NCBI GenBank assembly: GCA_017551515.1 | Contig: JAFZLK010000106.1 | Coordinates: 7,723 to 71,722 of the forward strand | Reading direction: 5' to 3' | From: Bacteroidales bacterium | Lineage (GTDB): Bacteria; Bacteroidota; Bacteroidia; Bacteroidales; ML635J-15 | DNA length: 64,000 nucleotides | Shown here: positions 25,787 through 50,774 of the stretch, piece by piece | Numbering within the stretch: the first letter of the stretch is position 1 | How the letters are laid out: the number at the start of each line of letters is the position of its first letter | Made by a program: the position numbers and the translations under genes | Notes under the pieces: model-generated | Seen by the model: only the letters and a program-made list of their open reading frames with translations | Database searches by the model: none | What the model was told of the DNA's origin: nothing

Positions 25787-25794
25787 TACTTTTG
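25787..25794 (+). promoter_or_regulatory. candidate -7 box (TACTTTTG) for the polyene cluster operon
   Basis: Lies 37 nt upstream of the ATG at 25832, in a 500-bp AT-rich gap. Confidence 0.45.
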
Positions 25795-25831
25795 CAGTTT
25801 TAAAAAATTTACATGCGCAAAGAATGTTGTT

Positions 25832-27370
25832 ATGATAACATTTACAGATAGATTGACACTAAATGAGGTTGAAAAGCTCTTGTTTTCAGCCGAAAACATA
25901 AATATATCCAAAGAATGGATTGACCGTGTTGATGACTGCTATCATTTTCTGGAAAAATTCGCTGCAGAAAAAGTCATCTACGGAATCAACACAGGCTTCG
26001 GTCCTATGGCACAATGGCGCGTTGACGACAACTACCTTTCTGACCTTCAATACAATATCATCCGCAGTCACGCCACAGGTGCAGGAGAACCATTGGAAGA
26101 CATTTATGTAAAGTCGGCAATGATTGCCCGTCTCGGCACTGTATTGCAATGCCGTTCCGGCGTTCATCCCGATGTTGCCAAACTGCTCATTTCGTTCATA
26201 AACGAAGGCATATACCCATTCATACCAATGCACGGAAGCGTAGGCGCTAGTGGCGACCTTGTACAACTGGCGCACATAGCACTTTGTCTCATCGGAGAAG
26301 GCGAAGTACACTACAAAGGCGAATGGCACAAATCTGCCGATGTGATGAAGCAACTCGGACTTACCCCATTGAAGATTCACATTCGCGAAGGTCTTTCAAT
26401 CACCAACGGCACTTCCGTAATGACGGGAATTAGCGTTGTAAACCAGATATATGCTGAAAATCTTCTCGACTGGGCAACTCTAGCAGCTGTATGGATGAAC
26501 GAAATCGCTTCTTCGTTCGACGACTATATGGCTTTGGAGGAAAACGAATGCCGTCGTCACGAAGGACAACAAGTAATTGCCCGCCGTATGCGCGAAATTG
26601 CCGAAGGTTCGCAGTGCATGAAAAAACGCGCTCACGAACTCTACGATTACGGACACAAGGACGTAAAAGTATTCGAACACAAGGTACAGGCATACTATTC
26701 GCTTCGTTGCACGCCACAGATTTTGGGACCTATATACGACACTCTGAAATATGCCCGCAATATAATCGAAGACGAACTCAACTCGGCTTGCGACAATCCA
26801 ATAGTTGACCCCGAATCGCAATACGTTTACCACGGAGGCAACTTCCATGGCGATTATATTTCACTTGAGGAAGATAAAGTCAAGATAGCACTTGTTCGTC
26901 TTGCTATGACATCCGAACGACAGCTCAACTACCTGTTCCACGACAGAATAAACGGCATTTTGCCGCCATTCCTGAACCTTGGAACTCTCGGACTGAACTA
27001 CGGAATGCAGGCTTGCCAGTTCACAGCAACTTCAACAACAGCAGAATGCCAGACACTCGCAATGCCGAACTATGTACACAGCATCCCGAACAACAACGAC
27101 AACCAGGACATTGTAAGCATGGGAACCAACACGGCATTAATTTGCAAGCATATAGTTGAAAACTGCTTCCAAATTATGGCAATCCAGTATATAGCTTTAG
27201 CTCAAGCAACCGACTGCCTAAAGATAGCAGACAAACTTTGTCCTACTTCACGCAAAGTTTATGAAGAAGTACGTAAAATAGTACCTCTGTTCATCGAGGA
27301 CACTCCTTTCTACAAGGACATTGCAAACATAGAAAACTATTTGAAAACTAATAAATTGAATTTGAAATAA
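25832..27370 (+). CDS. MIO-dependent aromatic amino acid ammonia-lyase (HAL/TAL family)
   Basis: GSVGASGDLVQLAH carries the Ala-Ser-Gly MIO triad. YGINTGFGPMA is present. 512 aa. Confidence 0.85.
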   Translation: MITFTDRLTLNEVEKLLFSAENINISKEWIDRVDDCYHFLEKFAAEKVIYGINTGFGPMAQWRVDDNYLSDLQYNIIRSHATGAGEPLEDIYVKSAMIARLGTVLQCRSGVHPDVAKLLISFINEGIYPFIPMHGSVGASGDLVQLAHIALCLIGEGEVHYKGEWHKSADVMKQLGLTPLKIHIREGLSITNGTSVMTGISVVNQIYAENLLDWATLAAVWMNEIASSFDDYMALEENECRRHEGQQVIARRMREIAEGSQCMKKRAHELYDYGHKDVKVFEHKVQAYYSLRCTPQILGPIYDTLKYARNIIEDELNSACDNPIVDPESQYVYHGGNFHGDYISLEEDKVKIALVRLAMTSERQLNYLFHDRINGILPPFLNLGTLGLNYGMQACQFTATSTTAECQTLAMPNYVHSIPNNNDNQDIVSMGTNTALICKHIVENCFQIMAIQYIALAQATDCLKIADKLCPTSRKVYEEVRKIVPLFIEDTPFYKDIANIENYLKTNKLNLK

Positions 27371-28098
27371 TGAAATACGCTCTCATCACCGGTGCTTCTC
27401 GTGGTTTGGGCAGGGCTGTCGCCTTGCGCCTCGCCAAAGACGGGTTTGCTGTAATAATCAACTACCAGTCGAACAAGGAAGCTGCCGAAGAAACATTGAA
27501 ACTAGTCCATGAAGTTGGCGGAATGGGAGAACTCCTCCCCTTTGATGTCGCCGATTCAAAAGCAATAGAAACTGCATTGGAATCGTGGCAAACTGCTCAT
27601 CCTGATGAATATATTTCCGTACTGGTCAACAACGCTGGCATCAGAAAAGACAATCTGATGATATTCATGCAGGAAACTGAATGGAACAATGTCGTTGACA
27701 CCACACTGAACGGATTTTTCTACATCACTCGCCGACTGCTAAAAGACATGATAACCCATCGCAACGGACGCATCATAAACATGTCGTCGCTGTCGGGACT
27801 GAAGGGACTGCCAGGCCAGACTAACTATTCGGCTGCAAAAGCTGCTCTTATCGGAGCGACCAAAGCATTGGCTCAGGAAGTTGCTGCAAGAAAAATAACC
27901 GTTAATGCAATTGCTCCCGGTTTCATTTCAACCGACATGACAAAGGAACTCAACGAGACCGAACTAAAGAAACTCATCCCGATGGGACGTTTCGGGAAAC
28001 CAGAGGAAGTCGCTAGCCTGACATCGTTCCTTGCATCTGACGAAGCTGCATACATCACAGGACAGGTAATTTCAATAAACGGAGGCTTATACACATAA
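27370..28098 (+). CDS. fabG: 3-oxoacyl-ACP reductase (FabG / ApeQ-like)
   Basis: TGASRGLGRA Rossmann motif and the S..YSAAK catalytic triad. Confidence 0.85.
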   Translation: MKYALITGASRGLGRAVALRLAKDGFAVIINYQSNKEAAEETLKLVHEVGGMGELLPFDVADSKAIETALESWQTAHPDEYISVLVNNAGIRKDNLMIFMQETEWNNVVDTTLNGFFYITRRLLKDMITHRNGRIINMSSLSGLKGLPGQTNYSAAKAALIGATKALAQEVAARKITVNAIAPGFISTDMTKELNETELKKLIPMGRFGKPEEVASLTSFLASDEAAYITGQVISINGGLYT

Positions 28099-28116
28099 AA
28101 ACAGGAAATTAGTATT

Positions 28117-29343
28117 ATGACAAGAAGAGTAGTCATCACAGGCATAGGCATCTGGTCTTGCATTGGCAAGAACAAGGAAGAAGTAACCGCATCATTACGC
28201 GAAGGTCGTTCAGGTATCGGCATCGACCCACAACGTATAGAATACGGCTATCGTTCGCCACTGACAGGAATCGTTGAAAAGCCACAACTTAAAGGCAAAC
28301 TCGACCGCAAACTCAGAATGTACCTTGCCGAAGAAGGCGAATACGCGTATGTAGCCACACTCGAAGCATTCCAGCAGGCAAATATTGACGACGAATACCT
28401 ACAGAACAACGAAGTTGGCGTAATTTTCGGCAACGATTCTTCGGCAAAGGCTGTCATCGAATCGCACGAGATGGCAATTGAGAAAAAAGACACCACTCTT
28501 ATTGGATCAGCAGCAATATTCCAGTCGATGAACTCGACAGTGACTATGAACCTGTCAACCATATTCCACCTCAAAGGAATAAACATGACTGTGAGCGCAG
28601 CCTGCGCAAGCGGATCTCACTCAATTGGTTTGGGAGCTTTGTTGATTCGCAACGGACTTCAAGACATGGTACTTTGCGGTGGCGCACAGGAAACCAACTA
28701 CCTATCGATGGGCAGTTTCGATGGTATAAGCGCTTTCTCAACTCGCATCGACGAGCCGACAAAAGCATCCCGCCCATTCGATCGCAATCGCGACGGACTT
28801 GTTCCTAGCGGTGGTGCAGCAGCATTGGTACTCGAAGACTACGACCATGCAGTAGCTCGCGGAGCTACAATATTAGCCGAAGTTTGCGGATACGGATTCT
28901 CGTCGAACGGCGAAAGCCACATATCGCAACCAAGCGAAGAAGGCTGTATGCGTGCAATGTTACGTGCCATAAAGGAAGCCGGCGTAAAAGCAGAAGACAT
29001 CGACTATGTAAACGCTCACGCAACATCCACCCCACAAGGCGACATGTTCGAGGCTTTGGCTTTGAAACAACTGTTTGGAAAGACACAAACGCCAATCTCT
29101 TCAACAAAATCGATGACCGGACATGAATGCTGGATGGCTGGCGCAAGCGAAATCGTCTACTGCATACTAATGATGCAGAACGGCTTCATCGCTCCGAACA
29201 TAAATTTCGAAAATCCCGACGAATATTCCGACGGGCTGAACATTGTAAACAAAGCTACAGACAAACAACTTAACACCATACTCTCCAATTCATTCGGATT
29301 TGGTGGCACAAATTCTGCATTAGTAATCAAAAAAATAAAGTAA
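28117..29343 (+). CDS. beta-ketoacyl-ACP synthase (KAS I/II type)
   Basis: Cys-His-His set: SAACASGSH, NAHATSTP, TGHECWMAG. Confidence 0.85.
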   Translation: MTRRVVITGIGIWSCIGKNKEEVTASLREGRSGIGIDPQRIEYGYRSPLTGIVEKPQLKGKLDRKLRMYLAEEGEYAYVATLEAFQQANIDDEYLQNNEVGVIFGNDSSAKAVIESHEMAIEKKDTTLIGSAAIFQSMNSTVTMNLSTIFHLKGINMTVSAACASGSHSIGLGALLIRNGLQDMVLCGGAQETNYLSMGSFDGISAFSTRIDEPTKASRPFDRNRDGLVPSGGAAALVLEDYDHAVARGATILAEVCGYGFSSNGESHISQPSEEGCMRAMLRAIKEAGVKAEDIDYVNAHATSTPQGDMFEALALKQLFGKTQTPISSTKSMTGHECWMAGASEIVYCILMMQNGFIAPNINFENPDEYSDGLNIVNKATDKQLNTILSNSFGFGGTNSALVIKKIK

Positions 29344-29345
29344 AT

Positions 29346-29909
29346 ATGAAACAGACATTATTGGTATTAGTTATTATTCTTACAGGAATAGCAACTGCAA
29401 CAGCAAAACCAGACGTAACGGTTATCAAGGGTTCTCTCGTAGAACTTAAAAAGTCTAACGCTAAGATTTTTGTCCGCTGGGACTACACCAACAGCACAAT
29501 CGAAGGCAAGGAAGTAAACGCTTATTTGAAGGAACGTGGCGATGACTGGGTTCGCGACTACGATGCAGAAATTTCAAGAGCTGAAAGTAACTTCAGAGAA
29601 CGCCTCGACGATGAATCGAAAGATGTTCAAACGACAACCGAAGAAAGTTCTGCCGAATATACCATTGTTATGAAAGTCAAAGACTTTAACTACGGTATAA
29701 CCGGATTGGCAGTCGCAGTAGGTTTTGGTGCTGGCGACTCTCATCTATATGGCACAATGGAAATTTACAAGAAAGGACAGTCGGAACCAATAGCAGTCCT
29801 CGATGTTGATGGAGTTCCAGGTGCTGGATTTGGCAACGAGATTCGTCGTGTAGAGGCATACCGCGAACTTGCAGAAAATTTGGCTAAGCTCATTAAGAAA
29901 GCAAAATAG
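29346..29909 (+). CDS. secreted protein of unknown function embedded in the cluster
   Basis: Signal peptide ending ATATA-KP. 187 aa; I recognise no catalytic motif. Confidence 0.55.
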   Translation: MKQTLLVLVIILTGIATATAKPDVTVIKGSLVELKKSNAKIFVRWDYTNSTIEGKEVNAYLKERGDDWVRDYDAEISRAESNFRERLDDESKDVQTTTEESSAEYTIVMKVKDFNYGITGLAVAVGFGAGDSHLYGTMEIYKKGQSEPIAVLDVDGVPGAGFGNEIRRVEAYRELAENLAKLIKKAK

Positions 29910-29916
29910 AAAACGA

Positions 29917-31017
29917 ATGGACTTATTTCCAGAATTAGAAAAAAAATATACTCGCGAACAACTTTCCGCCCGTGAAGCACAGCGACAGGCAGAATGGATT
30001 GCTTGGGGACCAGTGGTTTTCCAGGCATCGAGGTTAATGGTAAAATTCGGTATTCTCGACCTTCTCCGCGACAGCGACAATGGAATGACGCAGGAGGAAA
30101 TTGTAAAAGCTACAGGACTTTCTCCATACGCAGTAAAAGTGCTTATGGAAGCATCGCTATGCATAGGCACCGTGCTGATTGACAAGGACACCGACAGGTT
30201 CAGCATTTCAAAAACCGGCTGGTTTCTCTTGACCGACAAGCTCGTAAGGGTAAACATGGACTTCAACCACGACGTAAATTACGAAGGTTGGTTCAAACTC
30301 GAAGAGTCGCTTCTCGAAGGCAAGCCTGCAGGTCTGAAACATTTCGGCGACTGGCCGACAGTTTACGAAGGCTTGTCGCAGTTGCCAGAGCAAGTACAGA
30401 AAAGTTGGTTTGGTTTCGACCATTTCTATTCCGACAACTCGTTTGCTCAGGCCTTGGAAATTGTATTTTTCAACAAGCCGAAAACTCTGCTCGATGTTGG
30501 CGGCAATACAGGACGCTGGGCTTTGCAATGCGTCGGTTACGACAATGATGTAAATGTCACCATTATGGATTTGCCTCAGCAACTGGAAATGATGCGCAAG
30601 TTTACGGCAGGTCAAAAAGGTGCAGAACGCATCAACGGATACGGCATAAATCTGCTCGACAAAGCAGCCGCCTTCCCTACCGACAAGCACTACGATGCAA
30701 TATGGATGAGCCAGTTCCTCGACTGCTTCAGCGAAAACGAAATACTAAGCATTTTGTCAAGAGCTGCCAAAATAATGGATGACAAAAGCCGTGTTTACAT
30801 TATGGAAACATTCTGGGACAGACAGAAATACGAACCTGCAGCATTTTGTCTTACAATGACAAGTTTGTACTTCACCGCAATAGCCAACGGCAACAGCAAG
30901 ATGTATCATTCAGAGGATATGGCAAAACTTGTTCGTGAAGCAGGTATGGAAGTAGAAAAAATACATGACAATTTAGGTCATGGACATAGTATAATGATTT
31001 GTAAACGTAATAAATAA
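29917..31017 (+). CDS. SAM-dependent O-methyltransferase with N-terminal dimerisation/wHTH domain
   Basis: Motif I LLDVGGNTG. The ATG at 29917 is preferred over the track start at 29869, which overlaps the previous gene. Confidence 0.75.
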   Translation: MDLFPELEKKYTREQLSAREAQRQAEWIAWGPVVFQASRLMVKFGILDLLRDSDNGMTQEEIVKATGLSPYAVKVLMEASLCIGTVLIDKDTDRFSISKTGWFLLTDKLVRVNMDFNHDVNYEGWFKLEESLLEGKPAGLKHFGDWPTVYEGLSQLPEQVQKSWFGFDHFYSDNSFAQALEIVFFNKPKTLLDVGGNTGRWALQCVGYDNDVNVTIMDLPQQLEMMRKFTAGQKGAERINGYGINLLDKAAAFPTDKHYDAIWMSQFLDCFSENEILSILSRAAKIMDDKSRVYIMETFWDRQKYEPAAFCLTMTSLYFTAIANGNSKMYHSEDMAKLVREAGMEVEKIHDNLGHGHSIMICKRNK

Positions 31018-31022
31018 ATTAT

Positions 31023-31265
31023 ATGGATAGAAAAGAAATTGAAGCAAAAGTAAAAGAATTTTTGATTGAAGATCTTGAAATTGAAGAAGATAAGATAAAA
31101 CCTGAAGCTAGACTTAAGGAAGATATAGGTATCGACAGTCTCGATTTCGTTGACATCGTAGTTATAGTCGAAAGAAAATTCGGCTTTAAGATTAAGACGG
31201 AAGAGATGGTTAACATAAAGACTTTCAGCCAATTCTGCGATTATATTGAGCAAAAGACGGCCTAA
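31023..31265 (+). CDS. acyl carrier protein 1
   Basis: 80 aa with the GIDSLDFVDIV phosphopantetheine-serine motif. Confidence 0.85.
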   Translation: MDRKEIEAKVKEFLIEDLEIEEDKIKPEARLKEDIGIDSLDFVDIVVIVERKFGFKIKTEEMVNIKTFSQFCDYIEQKTA

Positions 31266-31268
31266 ATA

Positions 31269-32165
31269 ATGGCTGAAGAGCTGCAACATAACGAATGGTC
31301 GGGAAAGACTGACGGATTGCCGTGGATGCAACGTTCACTCATCGGCATGTTCCGTGTATTGCCTATATGGGTAATATACGGAATTATGGCAGTATTTATT
31401 GTTCCGTTCTACATGATATTCAGCAGAAAAGGTTATAAAGCCACATACTCTTTCTTCCGCAAACGCTTCCAATACGGACGATGGAAATCATTTTGCAAAG
31501 TATATGCAAACCATTTCCGTTTCGGGCAGGTAATATTGGACAGATTTGGCGTATATGCTGGCAAAAAATATAATTTTGTTGTAGAAGGACAGGAATACTT
31601 GGACGAACTTGAAACACATCCCGAAGGTTTTGTTCTGCTTAGCAGCCATGTTGGCAATTACGAAATTGCGGGTTATTCATTAAAGCCCAAAGCAAAGAGA
31701 TTCAATGCGCTGGTATTTGCAGGAGAAACAGCTACAGTTATGGAAAATCGTCGGAGGATGCTATCACAAAACAATATGAACATGATTCCAGTAATGGCAG
31801 ACATGTCGCATTTGTTTGCACTGAACACTGCAATCGACAACGGAGAAATTGTAAGCATGCCTGCCGACCGCATTTTCGGTTCGCAAAAAGCTGCTGAATG
31901 CACCTTCTTCGGAGAAACTGCACGTTTTCCTCTTGGCGCTTTTGCCTTGTCGGCACAGAAAAATGCTTCCGTACTTGCTGTTTTTGTAATGAAGGAAGCC
32001 ACAAAAAAATATCATGCATACGTCCGCAAAATCCAATGCGACAGGTCGGCAAAATTACGCGAACAAATGAGCCAAATGGCACAGAATTTTGCCGAAAATC
32101 TCGAGGAAATCGTCAGGAAATACCCGACACAATGGTTCAACTATTTTGATTTTTGGAAACAATGA
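31269..32165 (+). CDS. LpxL/HtrB-like lysophospholipid acyltransferase (ApeD-type)
   Basis: N-terminal TM segment, SSHVGNYE (HX4E) motif. 298 aa. Confidence 0.7.
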   Translation: MAEELQHNEWSGKTDGLPWMQRSLIGMFRVLPIWVIYGIMAVFIVPFYMIFSRKGYKATYSFFRKRFQYGRWKSFCKVYANHFRFGQVILDRFGVYAGKKYNFVVEGQEYLDELETHPEGFVLLSSHVGNYEIAGYSLKPKAKRFNALVFAGETATVMENRRRMLSQNNMNMIPVMADMSHLFALNTAIDNGEIVSMPADRIFGSQKAAECTFFGETARFPLGAFALSAQKNASVLAVFVMKEATKKYHAYVRKIQCDRSAKLREQMSQMAQNFAENLEEIVRKYPTQWFNYFDFWKQ

Positions 32166-32599
32166 AAGCAATTGACGACCTGACAATAGAAGAACTTATT
32201 CCGCAGAGACCGCCATTCGTAATGATTGACAGGCTGGTATCGAGCGACGAAGTGTATTCGGTAACGGAACTCACCGTACGCGAAGACAATCTGTTCGTCG
32301 AAGACGGACGGCTTTCGGCATCGGGACTGATTGAAAACATAGCCCAGACATGCGCAGCAAGAATCGGCTACATAAACCTAAACCACGGCGCAACTGTCAA
32401 AATAGGTGTCATCGGCTCTATAAGCAACTTGAACATTGAACGCACGCCAAAGGTCGGAGAAAAACTTACCACAACTATAAAACTGCTGGAAGAAGTTTTC
32501 CAAATGACTCTGGTCGAAGCGGTAACAACTTGCAATAACGAAGAAATCGTGCGCGCCAACATGAAAATAGCATTGACGGACATTGACTCAAAAAATTAA
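32153..32599 (+). CDS. hotdog-fold dehydratase (ApeI-like)
   Basis: LIPQRPPFVMIDRLV start, typical of APE-cluster FabA/Z-like dehydratases. 148 aa. Confidence 0.7.
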   Translation: METMKAIDDLTIEELIPQRPPFVMIDRLVSSDEVYSVTELTVREDNLFVEDGRLSASGLIENIAQTCAARIGYINLNHGATVKIGVIGSISNLNIERTPKVGEKLTTTIKLLEEVFQMTLVEAVTTCNNEEIVRANMKIALTDIDSKN

Positions 32600-33039
32600 T
32601 GACTATGGAAAATGAGAAGATATTATCGGTAACCAAACCTTTTGAAATCCGCTTCAGCGAAGTCGATTCAATGGGTGTTGTATGGCACGGACACTATTCG
32701 GTATACTTCGAAGATGCCAGAGAGGAATTTGGCAAAAAATACGATTTGGGCTACCTTATGATGTACGGCAAAGGCTTCTTCGAACCCATAGTTGACCTTT
32801 CAATAAAATACAAGAAACCGCTTATCTACGGCATGAAACCCGAAATTACAATCACCTACCGCCCTACCGATGCTGCAAAAATCATATTCGACTATGAAAT
32901 TCGCGACAGAGAAACCGGCGAAATCCATGTTACAGGTCGTACAATCCAGGTTTTCATGAACAAAAACAACTACCAGCTCGTACTTACAAATCCGGAATTC
33001 TACGAGGAATGGAAAAAAAGATGGGAGGTCGGAAAATGA
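32599..33039 (+). CDS. 4HBT/YbgC-type acyl thioesterase
   Basis: FSEVDSMGVVWHGHYSVYFEDAR motif. 146 aa. Confidence 0.8.
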   Translation: MTMENEKILSVTKPFEIRFSEVDSMGVVWHGHYSVYFEDAREEFGKKYDLGYLMMYGKGFFEPIVDLSIKYKKPLIYGMKPEITITYRPTDAAKIIFDYEIRDRETGEIHVTGRTIQVFMNKNNYQLVLTNPEFYEEWKKRWEVGK

Positions 33040-34718: not shown

Positions 34719-34976
34719 ATGGACGAATTGATTTACAAACTGAAACAGGAAATTATCGAAGCATTGAACCTCGAAGACATGACTCCAGAAGACATTGATG
34801 AAAACGCATCTCTGTTTGGCGAAGGTCTTGGACTTGACTCAATTGATGCACTCGAACTCATAGTGTTGATGGAAAAGAACTATGGCATAAAGCTGCAGGA
34901 TCCGAATCAGGGCAAGGAAATTTTCAAGTCTGTAAAGGTGATGGCTGAGTTCATCCAAAAGAACAGGACAAAATAA
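34719..34976 (+). CDS. acyl carrier protein 2
   Basis: 85 aa with the GLGLDSIDALELI motif. Confidence 0.85.
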   Translation: MDELIYKLKQEIIEALNLEDMTPEDIDENASLFGEGLGLDSIDALELIVLMEKNYGIKLQDPNQGKEIFKSVKVMAEFIQKNRTK

Positions 34977-42779: not shown

Positions 42780-45769
42780 AAAAATGTATTGTCATAGGAA
42801 GTGGACTTGGTGGACTATCCACAGGTGTGATTCTAGCAAAAAACGGCTACGAAGTAACCGTTTTTGAGCAAGCCAAGCAAATTGGCGGTTGCCTGCAATG
42901 TTTCTGGCGCAATGGCGTTAAGTTCGAAACAGGAATGCATTTTGTTGGCAGTCTTGATGATGGTGAAGTGCTTTCCAATTATTTCAACTTCCTTGGCATC
43001 AAGGACAAGGTTGAAGTTTCACGTATGGATACCTGTTCGTACAATACCATTTCGCTCAATGGCGAACGTTTTTCCATCGCAAACGGACACGAAGAGATGA
43101 TTGAAAGTCTGGGTAAAAGATTTCCTAATGAAAAGGACAATCTTCGCCGCTACTGGCAACTTGTAGATACGGTGGCACAAGAATCCCCTTTTTATGACTT
43201 GAACCGTATTGACAGGAATCCGCAACTTGACTTACGCCTATTCACAACAAGTATCAACGAGGTAATCGACGAGGTAATAACCGACCCTACTTTGCGCAAT
43301 GTACTTGTCGGGGATATGTCGCTTTATGCAGCTCAACGCGACCGTACACCATTTTCTACATACGCCTTTGTGTCGAACTTCTATAATCGAAGTGCATTCA
43401 GGATTGTGGGCGGAAGCGACAACATTGCAAAGGCACTTGCCGAAGTAATAAAAGAAAACGGAGGCAAGATTTATACTGGCTGCCGTGTCGTAAGAGCTCT
43501 TAGCAAAAATGGTTCGGTAACAAGAGTGGAACTTGAAAACGGAGAATTGATAGAAGGCGACGTATTTATTTCCGATGTACATCCTATGCAGTTGAGCAGT
43601 ATGTTTACAGGCAAGGAATTGCGCCCGTCATTCTATTCACGTATTGAGTCGATAAAGAACACCCCATCGGTATTTTCTCTTTTCTTGAAGTTCACGCCGG
43701 AAGCAATGCCATATATGAATACAAACTTCTATGGTTATTCATGCAATTCGCCATGGGATATGGAAAACTACGACGATAAAAGTTGGCCTCGTGGTTATTT
43801 GTATATGCACCATTGTCACGAGAAGGAACAAAAGTTCGCAAAAAGCGGCGTTATTCTAGCCTATATGCTTGCCGATGAATTGTCGGAGTGGGCACAAACG
43901 ACTATTGGAAAACGAGGAGAAGCGTACGAGGAGTTTAAACGTACAAAAGCGGAAAAATTACTTGATGCCGTTGAAAGGGATTTTCCTGGCCTACGGTCGT
44001 ACATTGAAGAATATTACACAGCAACTCCCTTAACCTACCGCGACTATACAATGTCTCCCGGCGGTTCGATGTACGGTATGGCAAAAGACTTGACTTTAGG
44101 TTTGGCTGGTCGTGTGTCGTACAAGACGAAGTTGCCGAACTTCTACTTGGTGGGACAGAACATAAACGCACACGGAATACTTGGCGTATTGGTCGGAACA
44201 TTGAACGTTTGCTCTGCTCTGCTTGGCGAGGATAAGGTTCATGCGCAAATGCTGGAGGCAAATAATTTGGTTAAATCAGCAGAACAAAAGACGGTGCTGA
44301 TTATCGGTGGAGGTCTTGGCGGTCTTGTAACTGGTGCTTTGCTCGCCAAGGAGGACTACAAGGTGACCGTTCTGGAGAAAAATGCCATAATCGGCGGCGG
44401 TTTGCAGACTATAAGGCGCAAAGGCGTTGATTTTGCAACGGGAATGCACTTTTTTGGAGGATTTAACAAAGGTGATAATCTTTACAAAATCTTTGATTAT
44501 CTTGGCATTGCCGACAAACTGAACCTTATGCCAACCGATGAGAATGCCTGTGACGTTGTAACCATAGCCGACGACAACGCCACATACCGACTTCCCAAAG
44601 GCAAAGAAAATCTGGTGAAATACCTTTCAGGAATTTTCCCAGATGAGACTGAAAACATTAGGCAATATATTGACAAACTTTTCGAACTCTCTCAGGAAGA
44701 AGACCTTTTCTATATGCGCGAAAGGTCTGCGGAACCGAATTTCACATCGTTGTCCGAAGATTTTATCAATCCGTATAACGTATTAATAGACAAATACATA
44801 CATAATCCAAAACTAAAAAGACTTCTTTACTACTTGAAACCGCTTTTTGGTGGTGAGGAAAATACAACTCCTGCATTTTTCAATGCGTTGCTCAGTGTGT
44901 TGCACATTGGCGGTACATTCCAGTTTGTAGGCAGTGGTCAGCAGATGGTTGACTTGCTAAAAAAAATCATTGAGGACAAAGGTGGTTCTGTTATTTCAAA
45001 CGAAGAAGTCACAAATATCGAAGTTGAGGATCATTTGGTTACAAAAGTCGTGACAAAGAATGGCAATTCATATACTGCCGACAGTTACATTTCCGATGTT
45101 CATCCCGATGTTTTAATGAAGATTATCAGCGACAATGCTTTCCCTGCCGCTTTCAGGAAACGACTGAAATTGATTCCAGAATCGACTTCAAGTTTCAAGG
45201 TTTACATAAAATTCAAGGAAAAATCGTTCCCGTTCTTGAACAATGCTAATTTCTACTACAACAGCAACTTAAACTGGCCACAAGGCATAATGTATGTAAC
45301 TCCGCCTGTTGAAAACCAAGGCGAGTTTGCGAAGTCAATGGCGATTATCAGTTTGATGGATTATGCTGATGTCAAAAAATGGGAAAATACCGAAACCGGA
45401 CATCGTGGCGAGGAATATGAACAGTGGAAGCAGAAAACTACAGAAAAAGTACTTGACGTAATGGAGAATATATATCCTAATTTTAGGAATTTCATTGATT
45501 TTTCATTTGCATCTTCACCTCTTACAATTCGCGACTTCTTGGGCAACAAGGAAGGTTCGATTTATGGTTTCCAGAAGGATAGCCGAAACTTGATGCTTTC
45601 GCAAATGTCGGTAACCACCAAGGTGAAAAATCTATTTCTTACTGGGCAGAATGTTAACATTCACGGATTCTGCGGAGTGTCTCTCACTGCAATAGAAACA
45701 GCGGAAGCCCTTGTCGGACACAATACCATCGTAAAAAAAATAAACGAACACTATAATATTTACAAATAA
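42776..45769 (+). CDS. tandem-duplicated CrtI/RetSat-like FAD-dependent oxidoreductase (two about 500-aa halves fused)
   Basis: Two dinucleotide-binding starts: IVIGSGLGGLSTG at aa 5 and LIIGGGLGGLVTG at about aa 508. The halves align along their N-termini. Confidence 0.8.
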   Translation: MKKCIVIGSGLGGLSTGVILAKNGYEVTVFEQAKQIGGCLQCFWRNGVKFETGMHFVGSLDDGEVLSNYFNFLGIKDKVEVSRMDTCSYNTISLNGERFSIANGHEEMIESLGKRFPNEKDNLRRYWQLVDTVAQESPFYDLNRIDRNPQLDLRLFTTSINEVIDEVITDPTLRNVLVGDMSLYAAQRDRTPFSTYAFVSNFYNRSAFRIVGGSDNIAKALAEVIKENGGKIYTGCRVVRALSKNGSVTRVELENGELIEGDVFISDVHPMQLSSMFTGKELRPSFYSRIESIKNTPSVFSLFLKFTPEAMPYMNTNFYGYSCNSPWDMENYDDKSWPRGYLYMHHCHEKEQKFAKSGVILAYMLADELSEWAQTTIGKRGEAYEEFKRTKAEKLLDAVERDFPGLRSYIEEYYTATPLTYRDYTMSPGGSMYGMAKDLTLGLAGRVSYKTKLPNFYLVGQNINAHGILGVLVGTLNVCSALLGEDKVHAQMLEANNLVKSAEQKTVLIIGGGLGGLVTGALLAKEDYKVTVLEKNAIIGGGLQTIRRKGVDFATGMHFFGGFNKGDNLYKIFDYLGIADKLNLMPTDENACDVVTIADDNATYRLPKGKENLVKYLSGIFPDETENIRQYIDKLFELSQEEDLFYMRERSAEPNFTSLSEDFINPYNVLIDKYIHNPKLKRLLYYLKPLFGGEENTTPAFFNALLSVLHIGGTFQFVGSGQQMVDLLKKIIEDKGGSVISNEEVTNIEVEDHLVTKVVTKNGNSYTADSYISDVHPDVLMKIISDNAFPAAFRKRLKLIPESTSSFKVYIKFKEKSFPFLNNANFYYNSNLNWPQGIMYVTPPVENQGEFAKSMAIISLMDYADVKKWENTETGHRGEEYEQWKQKTTEKVLDVMENIYPNFRNFIDFSFASSPLTIRDFLGNKEGSIYGFQKDSRNLMLSQMSVTTKVKNLFLTGQNVNIHGFCGVSLTAIETAEALVGHNTIVKKINEHYNIYK

Positions 45770-45811
45770 ACTTATACATTTGCAATTGTACAAAACATTA
45801 TCTATAAATTG

Positions 45812-47116
45812 ATGGACACTGTAAAACTAAAACTGATATATCCGAAGTGGAATAAGTTGCCCGGACAGACAACATTCAACCTGCCGCCTCACGGACCAGT
45901 AGCATTTGCAGCCACACTGCCCGAATATGTTGACATTTCGTTTACCGACGAGAACGTAGAGGCAATCGACTTTGACGAGGAATGCGACCTCGTTGCATTG
46001 TCGATGATGCTTACAACTCAGGTAAAACGTGGCTGGGCGATTGCCGACGAATACCACAAGCGAGGCAAAAAGGTCATCGCTGGAGGTATTTCCACTATGC
46101 TTCACGCAGAGGAAATGGTAAACCATGTCGATAGCGTATTCCTCGGCGAGTCGGAAGGTCGTTCAGAGCAGGTAATAATCGACTGGAAAAACGGATGCCT
46201 GAAGAAGATATACAACTACATGGGCAACCAGCCGCCAATCGAATCGGTAGGTCCTTGCCGCCGTGACTTGTACAAGCGCGAACTCTACAACCACAAGGGT
46301 GTACAGATGGTTGACCTTTTCCACGCAAGCCGTGGTTGTCGTTTCAGTTGCTATCCTTGCGCAGTGTCGTACCTGGGTGGTAGAAAGTTCCGTCCGCGTC
46401 CAGTTGACAAGGTCGTTGAGGATATGGCAAGCATCGACAACAACCGTCTGTTTATCGTTGATAACTCGCTGGCACAGGACAAGCAATGGGAAATGGAACT
46501 TTTCAAGGCGATAGCACCGCTGAAGAAAAAATGGATAAGCCACACCATCGAGGACGACCCCGAAGTGCTTGACCTTGCAGCAAAAGCAGGTGCTTGGTAT
46601 GTATATCAGGCAGTTTACGATACTTCAGACTACATCAAGGAGCGCGTAAAGAGATACCACGACTACGGAATTGGCGTTGAAGGCACAATTTTACTTGGCC
46701 TTGATAACCAGTCGGTTGATGATTGCAAGCGACTTATTGACTTCCTCGGTGAGATTGATTTGGACTTGGCAGAATTTACCGTAATGACACCTTTCCCGCA
46801 CACCAAGGCATACGACGACTTGTTGCGTCAAGGTCGAATCTTCGATTTCGACTGGAATCACTACAATGCAGGTCAGGTTGTTTTCCAACCAAAGTTGATG
46901 ACACCGGAGCAGTTGCAGGACGTTTACGAATACGCTTGGAAGAGTTTCTATGCTGCCGAAACTCAGGAATCAAAGATGTTCAGATTGTTCTGCAACGTTG
47001 CACTTCGTGAGATGGAAGAAGGTACATATCGTCCACGTAACAGAAAGTTGGCAAACAAGTCGTTTGGTCGCGATGTTGACAGAAGCAAGAGAAATGTAAA
47101 CCTTAGACCAGAATAA
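45812..47116 (+). CDS. B12-binding-domain radical SAM enzyme
   Basis: CRFSCYPC is the CxxxCxxC cluster motif, preceded by a Rossmann-like B12-binding N-domain. 434 aa from the ATG at 45812. Confidence 0.8.
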   Translation: MDTVKLKLIYPKWNKLPGQTTFNLPPHGPVAFAATLPEYVDISFTDENVEAIDFDEECDLVALSMMLTTQVKRGWAIADEYHKRGKKVIAGGISTMLHAEEMVNHVDSVFLGESEGRSEQVIIDWKNGCLKKIYNYMGNQPPIESVGPCRRDLYKRELYNHKGVQMVDLFHASRGCRFSCYPCAVSYLGGRKFRPRPVDKVVEDMASIDNNRLFIVDNSLAQDKQWEMELFKAIAPLKKKWISHTIEDDPEVLDLAAKAGAWYVYQAVYDTSDYIKERVKRYHDYGIGVEGTILLGLDNQSVDDCKRLIDFLGEIDLDLAEFTVMTPFPHTKAYDDLLRQGRIFDFDWNHYNAGQVVFQPKLMTPEQLQDVYEYAWKSFYAAETQESKMFRLFCNVALREMEEGTYRPRNRKLANKSFGRDVDRSKRNVNLRPE

Positions 47117-47128: not shown

Positions 47129-47491
47129 ATGAAAGTTTCAAAAGAATATTACGATGAGATTTTCCCTTTCAAGGGCGAATGGGACATGGAATCATCTTGC
47201 GGACTTAAGATAAGGGAATTTGAAGGCAAAAAATACGTAATTGTAACCGAATTGTACCAAGAAAACCCAGGCACATCGGTAACATACGCAGGCAAAAAGT
47301 TGGCTGACCAGATTTGCGAAGCAAAAAATCTGAAACTGGAGGACATCATTTATCTGGAATGTACGCCTAACACCAATTCAAAGTTGTCGTTTTACGACGA
47401 GGAGTATTTTCAGGTGGATTTCTTTGCCGATATGCAGCACAAGTACCGTCAATTGTCGAAAGACGAAGTTATGAAAATATTGGGAAGGTAA
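47129..47491 (+). CDS. small cytoplasmic protein, unknown function
   Basis: 120 aa, tightly packed between the rSAM and hydrolase genes. I recognise no motif. Confidence 0.5.
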   Translation: MKVSKEYYDEIFPFKGEWDMESSCGLKIREFEGKKYVIVTELYQENPGTSVTYAGKKLADQICEAKNLKLEDIIYLECTPNTNSKLSFYDEEYFQVDFFADMQHKYRQLSKDEVMKILGR

Positions 47492-48351
47492 TGTTGAAGA
47501 AATTAGTGCTTTATACTTTGTTTGTTTTTCTTGTCGGAACAGCCACCGCACAGGAGAAAATCTTTTTGTGGCAGGATACTGGCACAAAGAATTGGAAACA
47601 GACGACATTGACACCATATTTGGCTGAAAATAACACTAGTGGCACAGCTGTAATCGTTTGTCCAGGAGGAAGTTACTTTTGGCTTGCCGAAGAAACCGAA
47701 GGCCATGGCGTTGCAAGATGGTTGCAATCTAACGGAATTTCTGCATTTGTACTAAAATACCGTGTTGCAGGATTTTCAGCATTTTTCTGGAATCAACGCA
47801 CTAAAAAACACGGCAACCAGTACCCCGATATGTTCAACGATGCACAACAAGCAATAAAATGGGTGCGCGAACACGCAAAAGAATACAAAATTGACCCAAA
47901 CAAGGTAGGCATAATGGGTTTTTCGGCTGGCGGACATTTGTCGATGTCAACCGTATGCTACAGCAGTAAGGACCAACGTCCGTCGTTTGCCGCACCGATT
48001 TATCCGGTTGTTACAATGAATCCGCCATACGTTCACAAACGCTCACGTCGTGCATTACTAAACGAACGCAGACAAAACGACCAAACCATGCGCGACTCTC
48101 TTTCGCTCGAAATGCATGTACCTGCCGACTGTCCGCCTGTGTTCTTGGTAAACTGCGTTGACGACCCTACCGTAGAATACCACAACTCTATTTTGCTCGA
48201 TTCGGCACTGACAGCAAAAAATATAAAGCACAAATACATACAATACAAGACTGGCGGTCACGGCTTTGGCGCTAGCGATGAAAAAGGTACAGAAGAATGC
48301 CGTCAATGGAAAAACGAGTTCCTAAAATGGCTGAAAGAAAACATTTATTAA
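47491..48351 (+). CDS. secreted alpha/beta-hydrolase (esterase/lipase type)
   Basis: Signal peptide, GFSAGGH nucleophile elbow, C-terminal GGHGF. Confidence 0.75.
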   Translation: MLKKLVLYTLFVFLVGTATAQEKIFLWQDTGTKNWKQTTLTPYLAENNTSGTAVIVCPGGSYFWLAEETEGHGVARWLQSNGISAFVLKYRVAGFSAFFWNQRTKKHGNQYPDMFNDAQQAIKWVREHAKEYKIDPNKVGIMGFSAGGHLSMSTVCYSSKDQRPSFAAPIYPVVTMNPPYVHKRSRRALLNERRQNDQTMRDSLSLEMHVPADCPPVFLVNCVDDPTVEYHNSILLDSALTAKNIKHKYIQYKTGGHGFGASDEKGTEECRQWKNEFLKWLKENIY

Positions 48352-48360: not shown

Positions 48361-49662
48361 ATGATGAATAACAACGACATAGAATACAAATCGGTTGAAG
48401 AAATAAAAACATTCCAAGAAGAACTGCTACACAAGTCTCTTGCATACCTGCAGGCAAATTCACCATATTACCAGCGAATGTTCAAGAGCTACGGCATCAA
48501 CATCAACAAGATAAAGCACATCGAAGACCTTGTTAAGATTCCTTTTACAGAAAAGAAAGACCTTCAATTGTTCAACGAGGAATTTAGATGCTGTCCAAAA
48601 GAAAAAATCATCGACTACATCACCACCTCAGGAACCTTGGGCGACCCCGTGACATTCGGCTGTACCGAAAAAGACCTGCAACGGCTTGCATACAACGAGA
48701 AGAAATCCTTCGAATGCGCCAATGTGCACCCAGGCAATGTCGTACAACTTATGACCACTTTGGATAAACGCTTCATGGCAGGACTTGCATATTTCCTCGG
48801 TCTCCGAGAACTTGGTGCAGGCATTATCCGCGTGGGAAACGGAATACCGGAACTGCAATGGGACACTATCAAGCGCATAAAGCCCGACACAATAATGTGC
48901 GTACCTTCGTTCATACTCCGCCTCATACAATATGCCGAAGAACACAACATCGACTACAAGAACAGTAGCATCAGAAGAATAATAGGCATAGGCGAAGGTC
49001 TGCGCGACCAGAATTTCGAACTCAACCTGTTGGGCAAGAAAATAAAGGAGAAATGGGATGTTCAGTTGTTCGCCACATACTCGTCAACGGAAATGGGCGC
49101 AACCTTCTCGGAATGCGAGTACGGAATGGGCGGTCATGTGCATCCGGAACTTATCATAGTAGAAATTATCGGTGAAGACGGATTGCCAGTCCCCGACGGA
49201 CAACCCGGAGAAATTGTAGTGACAACACTTGGCGTGGAAGCCATGCCATTGCTTCGCTTCCGCACAGGCGACATTGCAGCAAAAATTGTCGACAAGTGCA
49301 AGTGCGGACGTAACTCATACCGCCTCACCCCTCTCGTCGGCCGTATGAACAACATGATTAAACTCAAAGGCACAACATTGTATCCACCTGCAATAAACGA
49401 TGTGCTTGACAATACAGATTATGTTGAAAACTATGTCATCGAGGTAAGGCAGAATGAAGCAGGAACCGACGATGTAACAGTAAAGATCGGACTTAAGGAA
49501 GAACAGGATTTCGATGTTGTAAAGGAATTAAAAGACAGTTTCCGCTCGCGCATCCGCGTGGCACCGCAAATTGAAATTCTCCCTGTAGAGGAAATTCAAA
49601 AAATTAATTTCCCCGCCAAGAGCCGTAAACCAATAAAATTTATCGATTTAAGGAAAAAATAA
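48361..49662 (+). CDS. PaaK / F390-synthetase-like adenylate-forming aryl-acid ligase
   Basis: TTSGTLGDP adenylation P-loop-like motif. 433 aa, the size typical of PaaK-type ligases. Confidence 0.75.
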   Translation: MMNNNDIEYKSVEEIKTFQEELLHKSLAYLQANSPYYQRMFKSYGININKIKHIEDLVKIPFTEKKDLQLFNEEFRCCPKEKIIDYITTSGTLGDPVTFGCTEKDLQRLAYNEKKSFECANVHPGNVVQLMTTLDKRFMAGLAYFLGLRELGAGIIRVGNGIPELQWDTIKRIKPDTIMCVPSFILRLIQYAEEHNIDYKNSSIRRIIGIGEGLRDQNFELNLLGKKIKEKWDVQLFATYSSTEMGATFSECEYGMGGHVHPELIIVEIIGEDGLPVPDGQPGEIVVTTLGVEAMPLLRFRTGDIAAKIVDKCKCGRNSYRLTPLVGRMNNMIKLKGTTLYPPAINDVLDNTDYVENYVIEVRQNEAGTDDVTVKIGLKEEQDFDVVKELKDSFRSRIRVAPQIEILPVEEIQKINFPAKSRKPIKFIDLRKK

Positions 49663-49670
49663 GCGCAATA

Positions 49671-50774
49671 ATGTTTGATGATATAAGGCCATATTATACG
49701 GAAGAGATTCCTGCTGCAATGCAAAAAATTGCCGACAGTGAAATCATTCCTCATATAGTCAACTATCTGATGCCAGGAACCGATGTAGAGTCATTTCGCG
49801 AAAGATTGAGAAAAGTCAGAACCACATACGAGTTCCAAAGTGGCATTATATCAGAATGTATTGATATTATTCTAAAAAAGACAACGAGCCAATTCGTCTG
49901 GACAGGAATAGAAAACATTAGCGAAGACAAACCTTACCTGTACATTTCAAACCATCGCGACATAGTTCTGGACGCAATGTTACTGCAATATCTGTTAATA
50001 AAGGAAAATCACAGAACAAGCCAGATAACATTCGGTAGCAACCTTATGCAACATCCGTTTATCGTTGATTTCGGCAAAGTAAACAAGATGTTCAAGACGG
50101 AACGAGGTGGCAACAGAGTTGAATTTTACAACAACCTGACCTATATGTCGAAATACATCAGGCATGTCGTTACCGAAAACAAAGAATCCGTGTGGATAGC
50201 ACAGCGCAACGGTCGTACAAAGGACGGACTTGATGTCACCGACCCAGCCATAATAAAAATGTTCTGGTCGAGCCGAAGGGACGACAAGATACAATCGCTG
50301 GCAGAAATGAACATTACGCCTGTATCTGTTTCATACGAATGGGACCCCTGCGACAAGTTGAAAACACTGGAACTATATCACACAAAAATCGACGGCAAAT
50401 ACAATAAAGTTCCAGGCGAAGACATCACCAGTATCCTAACTGGCATAAAACAGCCGAAAGGAAAAGTAAACTTTCATATCTGCAAAACACTAACTGAAAA
50501 CGACTTACGCAAAATAGACAGTTTGGAAGGAAATTATTTCTCGAACATTGCAAAACAGATTGACGAGCAGATAAACTCAAACTATGCTATAAATCCGAAC
50601 AATTATATAGCGCACGACATTCGTAGCGGAGAAGCGAAATACGCTAACCAATACACCGACGAGCAAAAAAAGCAATTCGTGGAATACATGAATTGGATTG
50701 ATGAATACAAAGACTTGGACAAGAATCTTTTGCGTGAAATTTTCCTCGGCATTTACGCCAACTGCATAAGGTAA
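49671..50774 (+). CDS. PlsC-domain glycerolipid/lysolipid acyltransferase-like protein
   Basis: NHRDIVLD (HX4D) motif. 367 aa. Confidence 0.65.
   Translation: MFDDIRPYYTEEIPAAMQKIADSEIIPHIVNYLMPGTDVESFRERLRKVRTTYEFQSGIISECIDIILKKTTSQFVWTGIENISEDKPYLYISNHRDIVLDAMLLQYLLIKENHRTSQITFGSNLMQHPFIVDFGKVNKMFKTERGGNRVEFYNNLTYMSKYIRHVVTENKESVWIAQRNGRTKDGLDVTDPAIIKMFWSSRRDDKIQSLAEMNITPVSVSYEWDPCDKLKTLELYHTKIDGKYNKVPGEDITSILTGIKQPKGKVNFHICKTLTENDLRKIDSLEGNYFSNIAKQIDEQINSNYAINPNNYIAHDIRSGEAKYANQYTDEQKKQFVEYMNWIDEYKDLDKNLLREIFLGIYANCIR

Follow-up and report, generated by a model that had tools for sequence, protein, structure and literature searches.

Organization of the gene cluster

We analyzed a 64-kb stretch of DNA (hereafter, the window) from an uncultured anaerobic rumen bacterium of the Bacteroidales (assembly GCA_017551515.1, contig JAFZLK010000106.1, positions 7,723 to 71,722), in which an operon of 25 co-directional and tightly packed open reading frames (ORFs) extends over 25832-50774 on the plus strand. 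This operon is almost certainly a flexirubin-type aryl-polyene gene cluster. Its genes, numbered g01 to g25 and named where possible after the flxA-flxY genes of Chitinophaga pinensis, are listed in Table 1.

Table 1. Genes and putative promoter boxes of the flexirubin-type cluster in the window (aa, amino acids; nt, nucleotides).
Feature	Assignment	Position	Strand	Evidence
Box	TACTTTTG, TAnnTTTG; putative Bacteroidota -7-type promoter box	25787..25794	+	Read in sequence; 38 nt upstream of flxA ATG
g01	FlxA, tyrosine ammonia-lyase (TAL)	25832..27370	+	FlxA_rubin_TAL 837.7 bits (cut-off 700); Pfam Lyase_aromatic
g02	FlxB, short-chain dehydrogenase/reductase (SDR) ketoreductase, FabG-type	27370..28098	+	FlxB_rubin_SDR 411.8 bits (cut-off 340)
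g03	FlxC, ketosynthase of the ketoacyl-ACP synthase (KAS) I/II type	28117..29343	+	Pfam ketoacyl-synt N and C domains; Cys-His-His by alignment
g04	187-aa protein with N-terminal signal peptide	29346..29909	+	Unmatched in Pfam and NCBIfam; no reference-cluster counterpart
g05	FlxJ-family S-adenosylmethionine (SAM) methyltransferase	29917..31017	+	FlxJ_fam_MTase 622.3 bits (cut-off 560)
g06	FlxD, acyl carrier protein (ACP), DSLD	31023..31265	+	Pfam PP-binding; motif
g07	FlxE, LpxL-like acyltransferase (ApeD equivalent)	31269..32165	+	Pfam Lip_A_acyltrans
g08	FlxF, hotdog dehydratase, ApeP-like	32162..32599	+	Weak NCBIfam FabZ match; reference-locus orthologs carry PF22817 ApeP-like
g09	FlxH, 4HBT thioesterase	32599..33039	+	Pfam 4HBT_2
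g10	FlxI, ketosynthase, Cys-His-His	33036..34154	+	Pfam; active-site alignment
g11	FlxL, short ketosynthase-N-terminal-like protein	34151..34705	+	35-43% identical to FlxL-position gene of reference clusters
g12	FlxM, second ACP, DSID	34719..34976	+	Pfam PP-binding; motif
g13	FlxN, ketosynthase, Cys-His-His	34977..36176	+	Pfam; active-site alignment
g14	FlxO, chain-length-factor-like ketosynthase partner	36173..37201	+	Pfam Ketoacyl-synt_2; Cys replaced by Gly, both His lost
g15	117-aa EamA/ArnE-ArnF-like membrane protein	37204..37557	+	Pfam EamA; NCBIfam ArnF 4e-13 and ArnE 2.5e-12, both below cut-off
g16	LolA2 (FlxQ), periplasmic carrier	37559..38158	+	LolA2_flexi 145.8 bits (cut-off 125)
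g17	FlxS, hotdog dehydratase, ApeI-like	38149..38526	+	Pfam FabA and ApeI-like, both weak
g18	FlxT, family 2 glycosyltransferase (GT2), polyprenyl-phosphate-sugar synthase type	38513..39262	+	Pfam Glycos_transf_2
g19	FlxU, MMPL exporter fused to PlsC-type acyltransferase	39255..42779	+	Pfam MMPL and Acyltransferase
g20	997-aa fusion of two CrtI/FlxV-like FAD oxidoreductases	42776..45769	+	Pfam Amino_oxidase, twice
Box	TACATTTG; putative promoter box	45775..45782	+	Within 42-nt gap, 30 nt before ATG of g21
g21	B12-binding radical-SAM enzyme	45812..47116	+	Pfam B12-binding and Radical_SAM, below cut-off; CxxxCxxC (CRFSCYPC) at residue 176
g22	120-aa protein, family unassigned	47129..47491	+	No Pfam, NCBIfam or PDB match; always follows radical-SAM gene
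g23	Secreted alpha/beta-hydrolase esterase	47491..48351	+	Signal peptide, GFSAG; Pfam BD-FAE and Abhydrolase_3
g24	FlxY, 4-coumarate-CoA ligase, PaaK fold	48361..49662	+	FlxY_rubin 703.7 bits (cut-off 520)
g25	PlsC-family acyltransferase, last cluster gene	49671..50774	+	Pfam Acyltransferase; 6567 homologs at E<=1e-10

The ORF list of the window agrees with the original prediction for this DNA in showing 25 ORFs on the same strand. Five of them had been listed from an upstream TTG or an early ATG and were trimmed to the likely ATG starts at 29917, 32162, 33036, 34151 and 45812. After this correction, gaps from g01 to g20 (25832 to 45769) do not exceed 18 nt, as claimed, while the overlapping junctions, by 1-14 nt, number 11 and not 10. 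A 42-nt gap (45770-45811) follows. The gap itself and the short distances beyond it (12 nt or less) were correctly described, but the genes behind it are five, rather than the six counted originally. The list of gene products given in the original prediction was confirmed throughout by Pfam, NCBIfam, motifs and active-site alignment. Absent from that list were the FlxV-like fusion g20, the radical-SAM enzyme g21, the hydrolase g23, the ArnE/F-like g15, and g04 and g22, which have no family match.

Genes of the polyene core

Protein families were assigned by Pfam and NCBIfam profile scans, where the flexirubin equivalogs of NCBIfam have curated cut-offs. Five products, FlxA, FlxB, FlxJ, LolA2 and FlxY, score above these cut-offs. 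A gene-by-gene BLASTP comparison with six reference flx loci (the Persicobacter psychrovividus plasmid pPP6, the Aureispira anguillae plasmid pAUEa and four Chitinophaga-type metagenome contigs) revealed collinear orthologs for 19 of the 25 genes, at 25-66% identity. Together, the equivalogs and the collinearity bear out the originally predicted membership in the aryl-polyene/flexirubin family. FlxA, which has its MIO motif ASGD at residue 139, is 49-53% identical to its reference counterparts, and FlxC is 60-66% identical. For the short protein g11, the ortholog in Aureispira is annotated as 'beta-ketoacyl synthase N-terminal-like'.

Of the genes by which a flexirubin cluster is recognized, those found here are the FlxA TAL, the FlxY ligase, a type-II polyene machinery collinear with flxB-flxS, and the LolA2, GT2 and MMPL-acyltransferase genes. 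The polyene machinery comprises several ketosynthases (KS), a chain-length-factor (CLF)-like partner, two ACPs, a ketoreductase (KR) and two dehydratases (DH), with no enoyl reductase. Likewise, the aryl-polyene core set used by antiSMASH (KS, ACP, CLF, DH, KR and transporter) is represented by equivalents that were assigned by function and not by Ape orthology: g03, g10 and g13 for apeO/R, g06 and g12 for apeE/F, g14 for apeC, g08 and g17 for apeI/P, g02 for apeQ, and g19 for apeM. FlxJ probably methylates the aryl ring, a role suggested by the methionine labelling of C. pinensis flexirubin (PMC3992019).

Genes for anchoring and export

Homologs of the FlxE acyltransferase are numerous (2733 at E<=1e-20), and the best 120 of these 2733 are all at least 73% identical to the window protein. 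The small membrane protein g15 occupies the position of the FlxP deacetylase; it is kept across the family of related gut loci described below and is absent from the reference clusters. We propose that it is a flippase subunit for a polyprenyl-phosphate sugar. FlxT matches the NCBIfam models AglJ (7e-22), PpgS (9e-17) and ArnC-type (3e-9), all below cut-off, and lacks the DUF2062 domain of reference FlxT proteins, which have a length of about 380 aa. Similarly, FlxU has no C-terminal methyltransferase domain, in contrast to the reference FlxU of about 1280 aa with Methyltransf domains, and its form in the window matches that in gut relatives (loci L095, L096, L097 and L099). The PlsC-family protein g25 evolves fast, being 42-65% identical in relatives, and ends the cluster in the same four loci. 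A search of PDB sequences with g25 returned nothing informative.

Accessory genes specific for the gut family

Genes encountered only in the gut family are g15, the second FlxV paralog, g21, g22, the secreted esterase g23 and the terminal PlsC-like g25. The module of FlxV, radical-SAM enzyme, 120-aa protein, esterase, FlxY and acyltransferase genes recurs in six further loci (L044, L046, L095, L096, L097 and L099); in two of them, L044 and L046, flxA has shifted to the cluster's 3' end and faces the module in convergent orientation. The signal-peptide protein g04 is accessory and restricted to the nearest relatives (L001, L002 and L004), with weak matches in L048, L061, L062 and L064.

The two halves of g20 share 31% identity. 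Canonical FlxV is most closely matched by the N half, at 33-38% identity to the reference FlxV proteins, while the C half is the gut-specific paralog and has an ortholog in L096, the only FlxV-like gene of that locus (62% identity). Two downstream neighbors, the 120-aa g22 and the esterase g23, differ in their conservation: g22 is 74-93% identical in relatives, and g23 is fast-evolving at 58-86%, compared with 85-92% for FlxY. Matches of g23 to the NCBIfam acetylxylan and pectin acetylesterase models lie below cut-off. A single-sequence AlphaFold2 model of g22 was unusable (predicted local distance difference test score, 48), and PDB sequence searches with g21 and g22 gave nothing informative.

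The radical-SAM enzyme g21 is the most conserved gene of the 3' module. It is 91-93% identical at the amino acid level in the more distant genomes L095, L096 and L099. Compared with L044 (8904-10205) and L046 (15637-16938), whose FlxA is 77% identical, it shows 99% amino acid versus 89% nucleotide identity, so that nearly all differences are synonymous and the gene must be under strong purifying selection. Recent transfer of g21 between genera was considered and rejected, as the nucleotide identity is only 89%. In a library of 1.84 billion representative proteins, only two full-length representatives (of 50% clusters) reach an identity of 53% or more with g21. The wider B12-radical-SAM family around it (666 proteins at E<=1e-30, 30-38% identical) is uncharacterized. 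No NCBIfam model reaches its cut-off with g21, which is weakly similar to lipid and tetrapyrrole radical-SAM enzymes of the ladderane, hopanoid and BchE types, and none of the tested members of the wider family reaches a curated cut-off either. One 1210-aa representative (P0502) is a fusion of an MMPL/HpnN-like lipid transporter of the RND superfamily (residues ~137-750) with a B12-radical-SAM domain 34% identical to g21, which hints that this family acts on membrane lipids.

These additions could be taken to indicate a different product altogether, in which the doubled FlxV, a member of the retinol-saturase/CrtI family, and the radical-SAM enzyme would saturate, cyclise or methylate the chain, leaving an outer-membrane aryl-alkyl lipid with short conjugation or no pigment character. 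Both the second FlxV paralog and the radical-SAM gene are indeed gut-specific and strongly conserved, the distant relatives of g21 include the ladderane, hopanoid and BchE-type enzymes just mentioned, and an antioxidant pigment is of less obvious use to a strict anaerobe. Nevertheless, the combination of KS, CLF, KR and DH without enoyl reductase is the polyene-forming set of every characterized aryl-polyene (APE) or flexirubin cluster, FlxV also occurs in colored flexirubin producers, and no homolog of the tailoring enzymes has a function demonstrated. We therefore regard a non-pigment lipid as improbable.

Cluster boundaries and candidate promoters

The 5' boundary of the cluster was placed at flxA, because upstream synteny with the window is limited to the three closest genomes (L001-L003), whereas the cluster itself is kept in dozens of genomes. 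The 3' boundary was placed at the PlsC-like g25, because the genes beyond it differ between relatives. Upstream, a GC-rich hairpin followed by a T-run (~25421-25447) closes a GNAT gene.

The TAnnTTTG box reported originally before the first ATG is present at 25787-25794. In addition to the copy before g21, a further TACATTTG box is located at 50819-50826, 17 nt before the cutC ATG. Across the window the motif is not enriched (73 matches versus 63 +/- 7 expected in shuffles). However, three of the five plus-strand copies in the 25-51 kb interval fall in the sole three intergenic gaps longer than 20 nt, namely those before g01, between g20 and g21, and before cutC. This placement points to a main promoter, perhaps a second one within the cluster for the five genes of the 3' module, and a separate promoter of cutC. 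A scan of the 44-52.5 kb interval for sigma-70 promoters and intrinsic terminators performed no better than shuffles; sigma-70 is also the wrong promoter model for Bacteroidota.

Several features of the flanks were also noted. The GNAT gene upstream of the cluster is missing even in the closest related genomes L001-L003, and directly 3' of the cluster the window carries cutC and a transglutaminase-like gene. Three predicted cargo proteins of the type IX secretion system (T9SS) with Por_Secre_tail domains flank the cluster: an endonuclease/exonuclease/phosphatase-family protein (17403-18662), a 406-aa protein without assigned function (22930-24150), and a CotH-kinase/LTD protein (60319-62343). 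A tRNA-Ala(GGC) gene at 24161-24237 lies just after the second of these T9SS-sorted protein genes. Farther upstream (3511-4302), a 263-aa protein with ornithine-4,5-aminomutase dimerisation and B12-binding domains is encoded beside rsgA, surE and lpxB, with no partner subunit visible.

Distribution in gut Bacteroidales

A scan of a genome collection with FlxA identified 80 related loci (L001-L080), all in metagenome-assembled genomes (MAGs) of uncultured Bacteroidales, with FlxA identity from 97% down to 73%. Their hosts include red deer, yak, goat, buffalo, sheep, cattle, horse and the human gut, and some of the genomes carry the names Candidatus Limimorpha, Muribaculaceae or Alistipes sp. 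CAG:435. Among gut Bacteroidales, the cluster is conserved in dozens of species. Its homologs are very abundant in rumen assemblies, and the window's own proteins are found on scaffolds of the European Nucleotide Archive of up to 306 kb. A scan of viral contigs with a FlxY alignment gave no match. Outside this family, complete flexirubin-type polyene clusters that include FlxW are carried by two plasmids, pPP6 (157 kb; L083, L085) and pAUEa (122 kb; L084, L082). The flx cluster on pAUEa spans the record origin. Besides its flx genes, pPP6 has a CRISPR-Cas locus that resembles type III and includes a primase-polymerase.

Approximately 15 gut Bacteroidales genomes have a lone FlxA-like ammonia-lyase, 74-77% identical, with no other flx gene within 10 kb (L043, L045, L047, L049, L052-L055, L058, L063, L070, L071, L075 and L077). 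In two annotated loci, L047 (9941-11524) and L055 (9902-11515), a histidyl-tRNA synthetase gene is located directly 3' of it. Such a lone gene may encode a stand-alone TAL or histidine ammonia-lyase (HAL), or may belong to a split cluster.

The lone FlxA homologs, together with the six genes of the C. pinensis set that are missing from the window, would be expected of a decaying or silent remnant, that is, an ancestral flexirubin pathway which lost essential parts (the phosphopantetheinyl transferase, FlxW, deacetylase, halogenase and dar genes) when its host became a gut anaerobe and which yields no product. This explanation appears very improbable to us, given that all 25 ORFs and all catalytic motifs are intact, that the gene set is kept across many species and hosts under the purifying selection evident in g21, and that homologs are so abundant in the rumen. 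We rather lean towards the reading that these genes form a working operon for the synthesis and export of an aryl-polyene lipid of the flexirubin family, in a variant restricted to gut and rumen Bacteroidales.

Nature of the polyene acceptor

In flexirubins the polyene is esterified to a dialkylresorcinol (DAR), made by DarA and DarB. The original prediction stated that the window contains no FabH-like DarB candidate. This was borne out by Pfam scans and by a phmmer search of six-frame ORFs of at least 80 aa with E. coli FabH, neither of which found a FabH/KAS-III-like ORF in the 64 kb. With the same query, no KAS-III gene was detected within 10 kb on either side of flxA in the 80 related genomes (~1.7 Mb), the remainder of these genomes lying outside the search. 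None is located in the 10 kb 3' of the last cluster gene in L095, L096, L097 and L099 either. The query is capable of reaching distant KAS-III relatives, such as OleA and PqsC, in a PDB search. Its PDB matches included OleA, PqsD and CorB, with no usable alignment for DarB or StlD.

The second line of evidence is FlxW, the proposed enzyme for coupling polyene and DAR, which is present in every reference cluster with a visible 3' part. Three FlxW sequences used in tblastn gave no match in the window or in L001-L080, and PF03417 was not found in L095, L096, L097 or L099. FlxK, FlxG and FlxX are likewise absent from the window and all 80 related loci. FlxP and FlxR are absent from the window, with isolated weak matches only in related loci (L052/L048 and L074).

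Published surveys provide a third line. In a catalogue of more than 5000 gut MAGs from Caprinae, about 242 arylpolyene clusters were reported by antiSMASH in Bacteroidetes families, with no 'resorcinol' product type and with 'other' equal to 0 for these families (PMC9769736, Table S10). In cattle, 1904 MAGs from digesta contained no resorcinol-arylpolyene hybrids, which were encountered only in epithelium-associated genomes (PMC12918008).

Based on these data, a product that is DAR-free and lipid-anchored seems to us somewhat favored. The original prediction had arrived at the same preference by another route, arguing that a locus with no darAB but with three acyltransferase domains and a GT2 implies a lipid anchor. 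That argument does not follow, because the C. pinensis locus has the same properties and yet makes a DAR ester. Its conclusion nevertheless stays plausible on different grounds, namely the absence of FlxW, the KAS-III-free relatives and the MAG surveys.

The principal competing explanation is a canonical flexirubin pathway that is split in the genome, with the window as its polyene half, unlinked darAB, BtrH-like enzyme and ABC transporter genes, and an aryl-polyene DAR ester as product. Separate flx and dar loci are documented in C. pinensis (PMC3992019), and every Chitinophaga-type flx locus examined is dar-less in cis. No dar genes were seen near seven further flx loci (pPP6 and pAUEa, of which parts were read, and five metagenomic contexts of Persicobacter FlxE homologs, one of them without DNA). 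On plasmids, a tblastn search with E. coli FabH retrieved only unrelated KAS-III genes of Ralstonia, Azospirillum and Methylosinus, and the BtrH-like protein of L096 led to no dar cluster. What renders the split pathway rather unlikely in our judgment is the lack of FlxW and of neighboring KAS-III genes described above, the absence of a BtrH-like gene from the window, and the surveys of ruminant gut MAGs, in which Bacteroidetes or digesta genomes are devoid of resorcinol-type clusters.

Several observations weigh against a DAR-free lipid and should be set beside this assessment. The absence of darAB from the locus is uninformative by itself, because in C. pinensis these genes lie about 5000 genes away, and true flexirubin producers likewise possess the acyltransferases, GT2, LolA and exporter. 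The MAG surveys describe incomplete genomes with an unclear binning of hybrid clusters and are indirect evidence. The idea that absence of FlxW alone proves a DAR-free product was rejected, since the DAR ester of Azoarcus, which has darAB, is formed in the absence of a C45 enzyme (PMC3949708). In L096 (11167-13222) and L099 (12879-14954), a BtrH_N/DUF4872 gene is located directly 3' of the last acyltransferase gene of the cluster, followed in both by an NAD-dependent glycerol-3-phosphate dehydrogenase gene; since the gene of this 'BtrH-like peptidase' is found together with darAB in C. pinensis, F. johnsoniae and Azoarcus (for Azoarcus, PMC3949708), the acceptor in the wider family may yet be of the DAR type, and the same adjacency is consistent with the split pathway. 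Finally, the product chemistry proposed for the gut family is deduced from its genes, and g21, g22, g23 and g25 have no characterized homologs to support their functions.

Proposed pathway

For the DAR-free lipid, we propose the following pathway. According to the family assignments, FlxA would deaminate tyrosine to 4-coumarate, which FlxY would convert to 4-coumaroyl-CoA. The starter would be loaded on one of the ACPs, g06 or g12, and extended by the type-II ketosynthases g03, g10 and g13 with the Cys-less g14 and with g11. Each round would involve reduction by FlxB and dehydration by g08 and g17 with no enoyl reduction, resulting in a conjugated aryl-polyene acyl-ACP, the ring of which would be methylated by FlxJ as a member of its family. 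By analogy with the aryl-polyene lipids (APELs) of Xenorhabdus, the polyene acyl group would be esterified to a membrane glyco- or phospholipid and not to a DAR. This anchor might be built by the LpxL-like g07, by the GT2 g18 with the ArnE/F-like flippase g15, and by the PlsC domains of g19 and g25. In favor of such an anchor, g18 resembles synthases of polyprenyl-phosphate sugars, among them ArnC and the N-acetylgalactosamine enzyme PpgS. Export may proceed through the MMPL part of g19, with LolA2 carrying the lipid to the outer membrane, and the secreted esterase g23 may replace the missing CE4 deacetylase.

More speculatively, g21, g22 and the doubled FlxV could provide oxygen-independent tailoring of the lipid or polyene, possibly including C-methylation by g21, and could take the place of two parts of the aerobic clusters, namely the O2-dependent halogenase and the SAM-methyltransferase domain. 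Such tailoring fits the loss of an O2-dependent halogenase in an anaerobe. The specific tailoring role of the radical-SAM enzyme is nevertheless doubtful at present.

Significance of the gut variant

Aryl-polyene clusters rank with the most frequent biosynthetic clusters of Gram-negative bacteria. To our knowledge, the full aryl-polyene product is established for one proteobacterial system only, and the products known in Bacteroidota are limited to flexirubin esters from aerobic genera in culture. As a type the cluster is not new, because arylpolyene clusters in gut Bacteroidetes are routinely counted in MAG surveys and the flexirubin gene set is well described. For the gut and rumen variant, with its radical-SAM module, without FlxW, halogenase, deacetylase and phosphopantetheinyl transferase (PPTase), and apparently also without the resorcinol branch, a literature search retrieved no description. 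Among the uncultured anaerobic Bacteroidales that inhabit ruminants, horses and humans, a tyrosine-primed flexirubin-type cluster is shown here to be widely distributed and strongly selected, in a form that carries its own conserved accessory module and gives no sign of a DAR branch.

A bolder and more tentative proposal, which we judge possible without favoring it, is that the variant enables strictly anaerobic rumen and gut Bacteroidales to make an undescribed class of tyrosine-primed, DAR-free aryl-polyene membrane lipids. Their tailoring would proceed without oxygen through the dedicated B12-radical-SAM enzyme, its 120-aa partner and the duplicated FlxV, and their anchoring would follow a polyprenyl-phosphate-sugar route with the GT2, the ArnE/F-like flippase and the PlsC-type acyltransferases. 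Such lipids would form a third structural branch beside flexirubins and APELs and would be abundant in ruminant microbiomes. If the product is a new lipid of this kind, rumen bacteria would have it as an abundant component of their outer membrane, with a possible role in tolerance of oxygen or reactive oxygen species at the epithelium or in host interaction, an orphan B12-radical-SAM family would gain a function, and genome mining could no longer equate a 'flexirubin-type cluster' with flexirubin production. If, on the other hand, these genomes encode darAB at another locus, what remains is an ordinary flexirubin pathway with separate loci, found in an unusual host.

Comparison with known systems

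The closest characterized system is that of C. pinensis DSM 2588, a cultured organism in contrast to the uncultured anaerobic host of the window. Its polyene cluster flxA-flxY comprises 25 genes (Cpin_1853-1877; Schoner et al. 2014, PMC3992019), and its FlxA and FlxY have been shown to function as TAL and 4-coumarate-CoA ligase, respectively (PMC3992019). The two clusters share the starter pathway of TAL and 4-coumarate-CoA ligase (4CL), FlxB, three Cys-His-His ketosynthases, the CLF-like FlxO, the short FlxL, two ACPs, two hotdog dehydratases, the thioesterase and FlxJ. They also share the LpxL-like acyltransferase, LolA2, GT2, MMPL-acyltransferase exporter and FlxV, in nearly the same order, and the lack of darAB in cis; the C. 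pinensis darB and darA (Cpin_6850/6851) are the genes located about 5000 genes from its flx locus (PMC3992019). Six C. pinensis genes have no counterpart in the window: FlxG, FlxK (halogenase), FlxP (CE4 deacetylase), FlxR, FlxW (C45/AAT) and FlxX (PPTase). Conversely, the window gains the ArnE/F-like protein, the fused second FlxV, the B12-radical-SAM enzyme, the 120-aa protein, the secreted esterase and the terminal PlsC-like acyltransferase.

The cluster of Flavobacterium johnsoniae UW101 (Fjoh_1074-1110) resembles the window in its polyene core, export genes, LolA2 and FlxY. However, it carries darB and darA (Fjoh_1102/1103) between the equivalents of flxF and flxE, at a point where flxE and flxF of the window overlap directly, and it also holds genes for an ABC transporter, a BtrH/NlpC-like peptidase and outer-membrane beta-barrel proteins. 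Among the gut relatives, L096 has two OMP_b-brl_2 genes, as does this flexirubin cluster.

In Azoarcus sp. BH72, the arcuflavin pathway (a hybrid of xanthomonadin and dialkylresorcinol types) has a glycosyltransferase, LolA, acyltransferase and exporter set similar to that of the window, with the dar genes at a locus separate from that of the polyene genes (PMC3949708). It differs in a chorismate-derived (XanB2) starter, in having darAB and the BtrH-like peptidase, and in having no TAL or FlxY.

The APEL of Xenorhabdus doucetiae, an aryl polyene esterified to N-acetylgalactosamine (GalNAc)-phosphate-diacylglycerol (Grammbitter et al., bioRxiv 10.1101/2020.12.19.423268), is made by homologous core genes and is the product on which our proposed anchor is modelled. 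The ape clusters of X. doucetiae and E. coli CFT073 lack FlxV, radical-SAM, esterase and FlxJ-type genes and belong to Proteobacteria. They start from 4-hydroxybenzoate via an adenylating enzyme, and not from tyrosine via TAL and 4CL. Nevertheless, they have in common with the window the type-II set of KS, CLF, ACP, KR and DH, the LpxL-like acyltransferase, GT2, LolA-like carrier and MMPL exporter, as well as the absence of dialkylresorcinol genes and of a C45 enzyme, a likeness to the Ape proteins that consists in function and in weak Pfam ApeI-like and ApeP-like matches.

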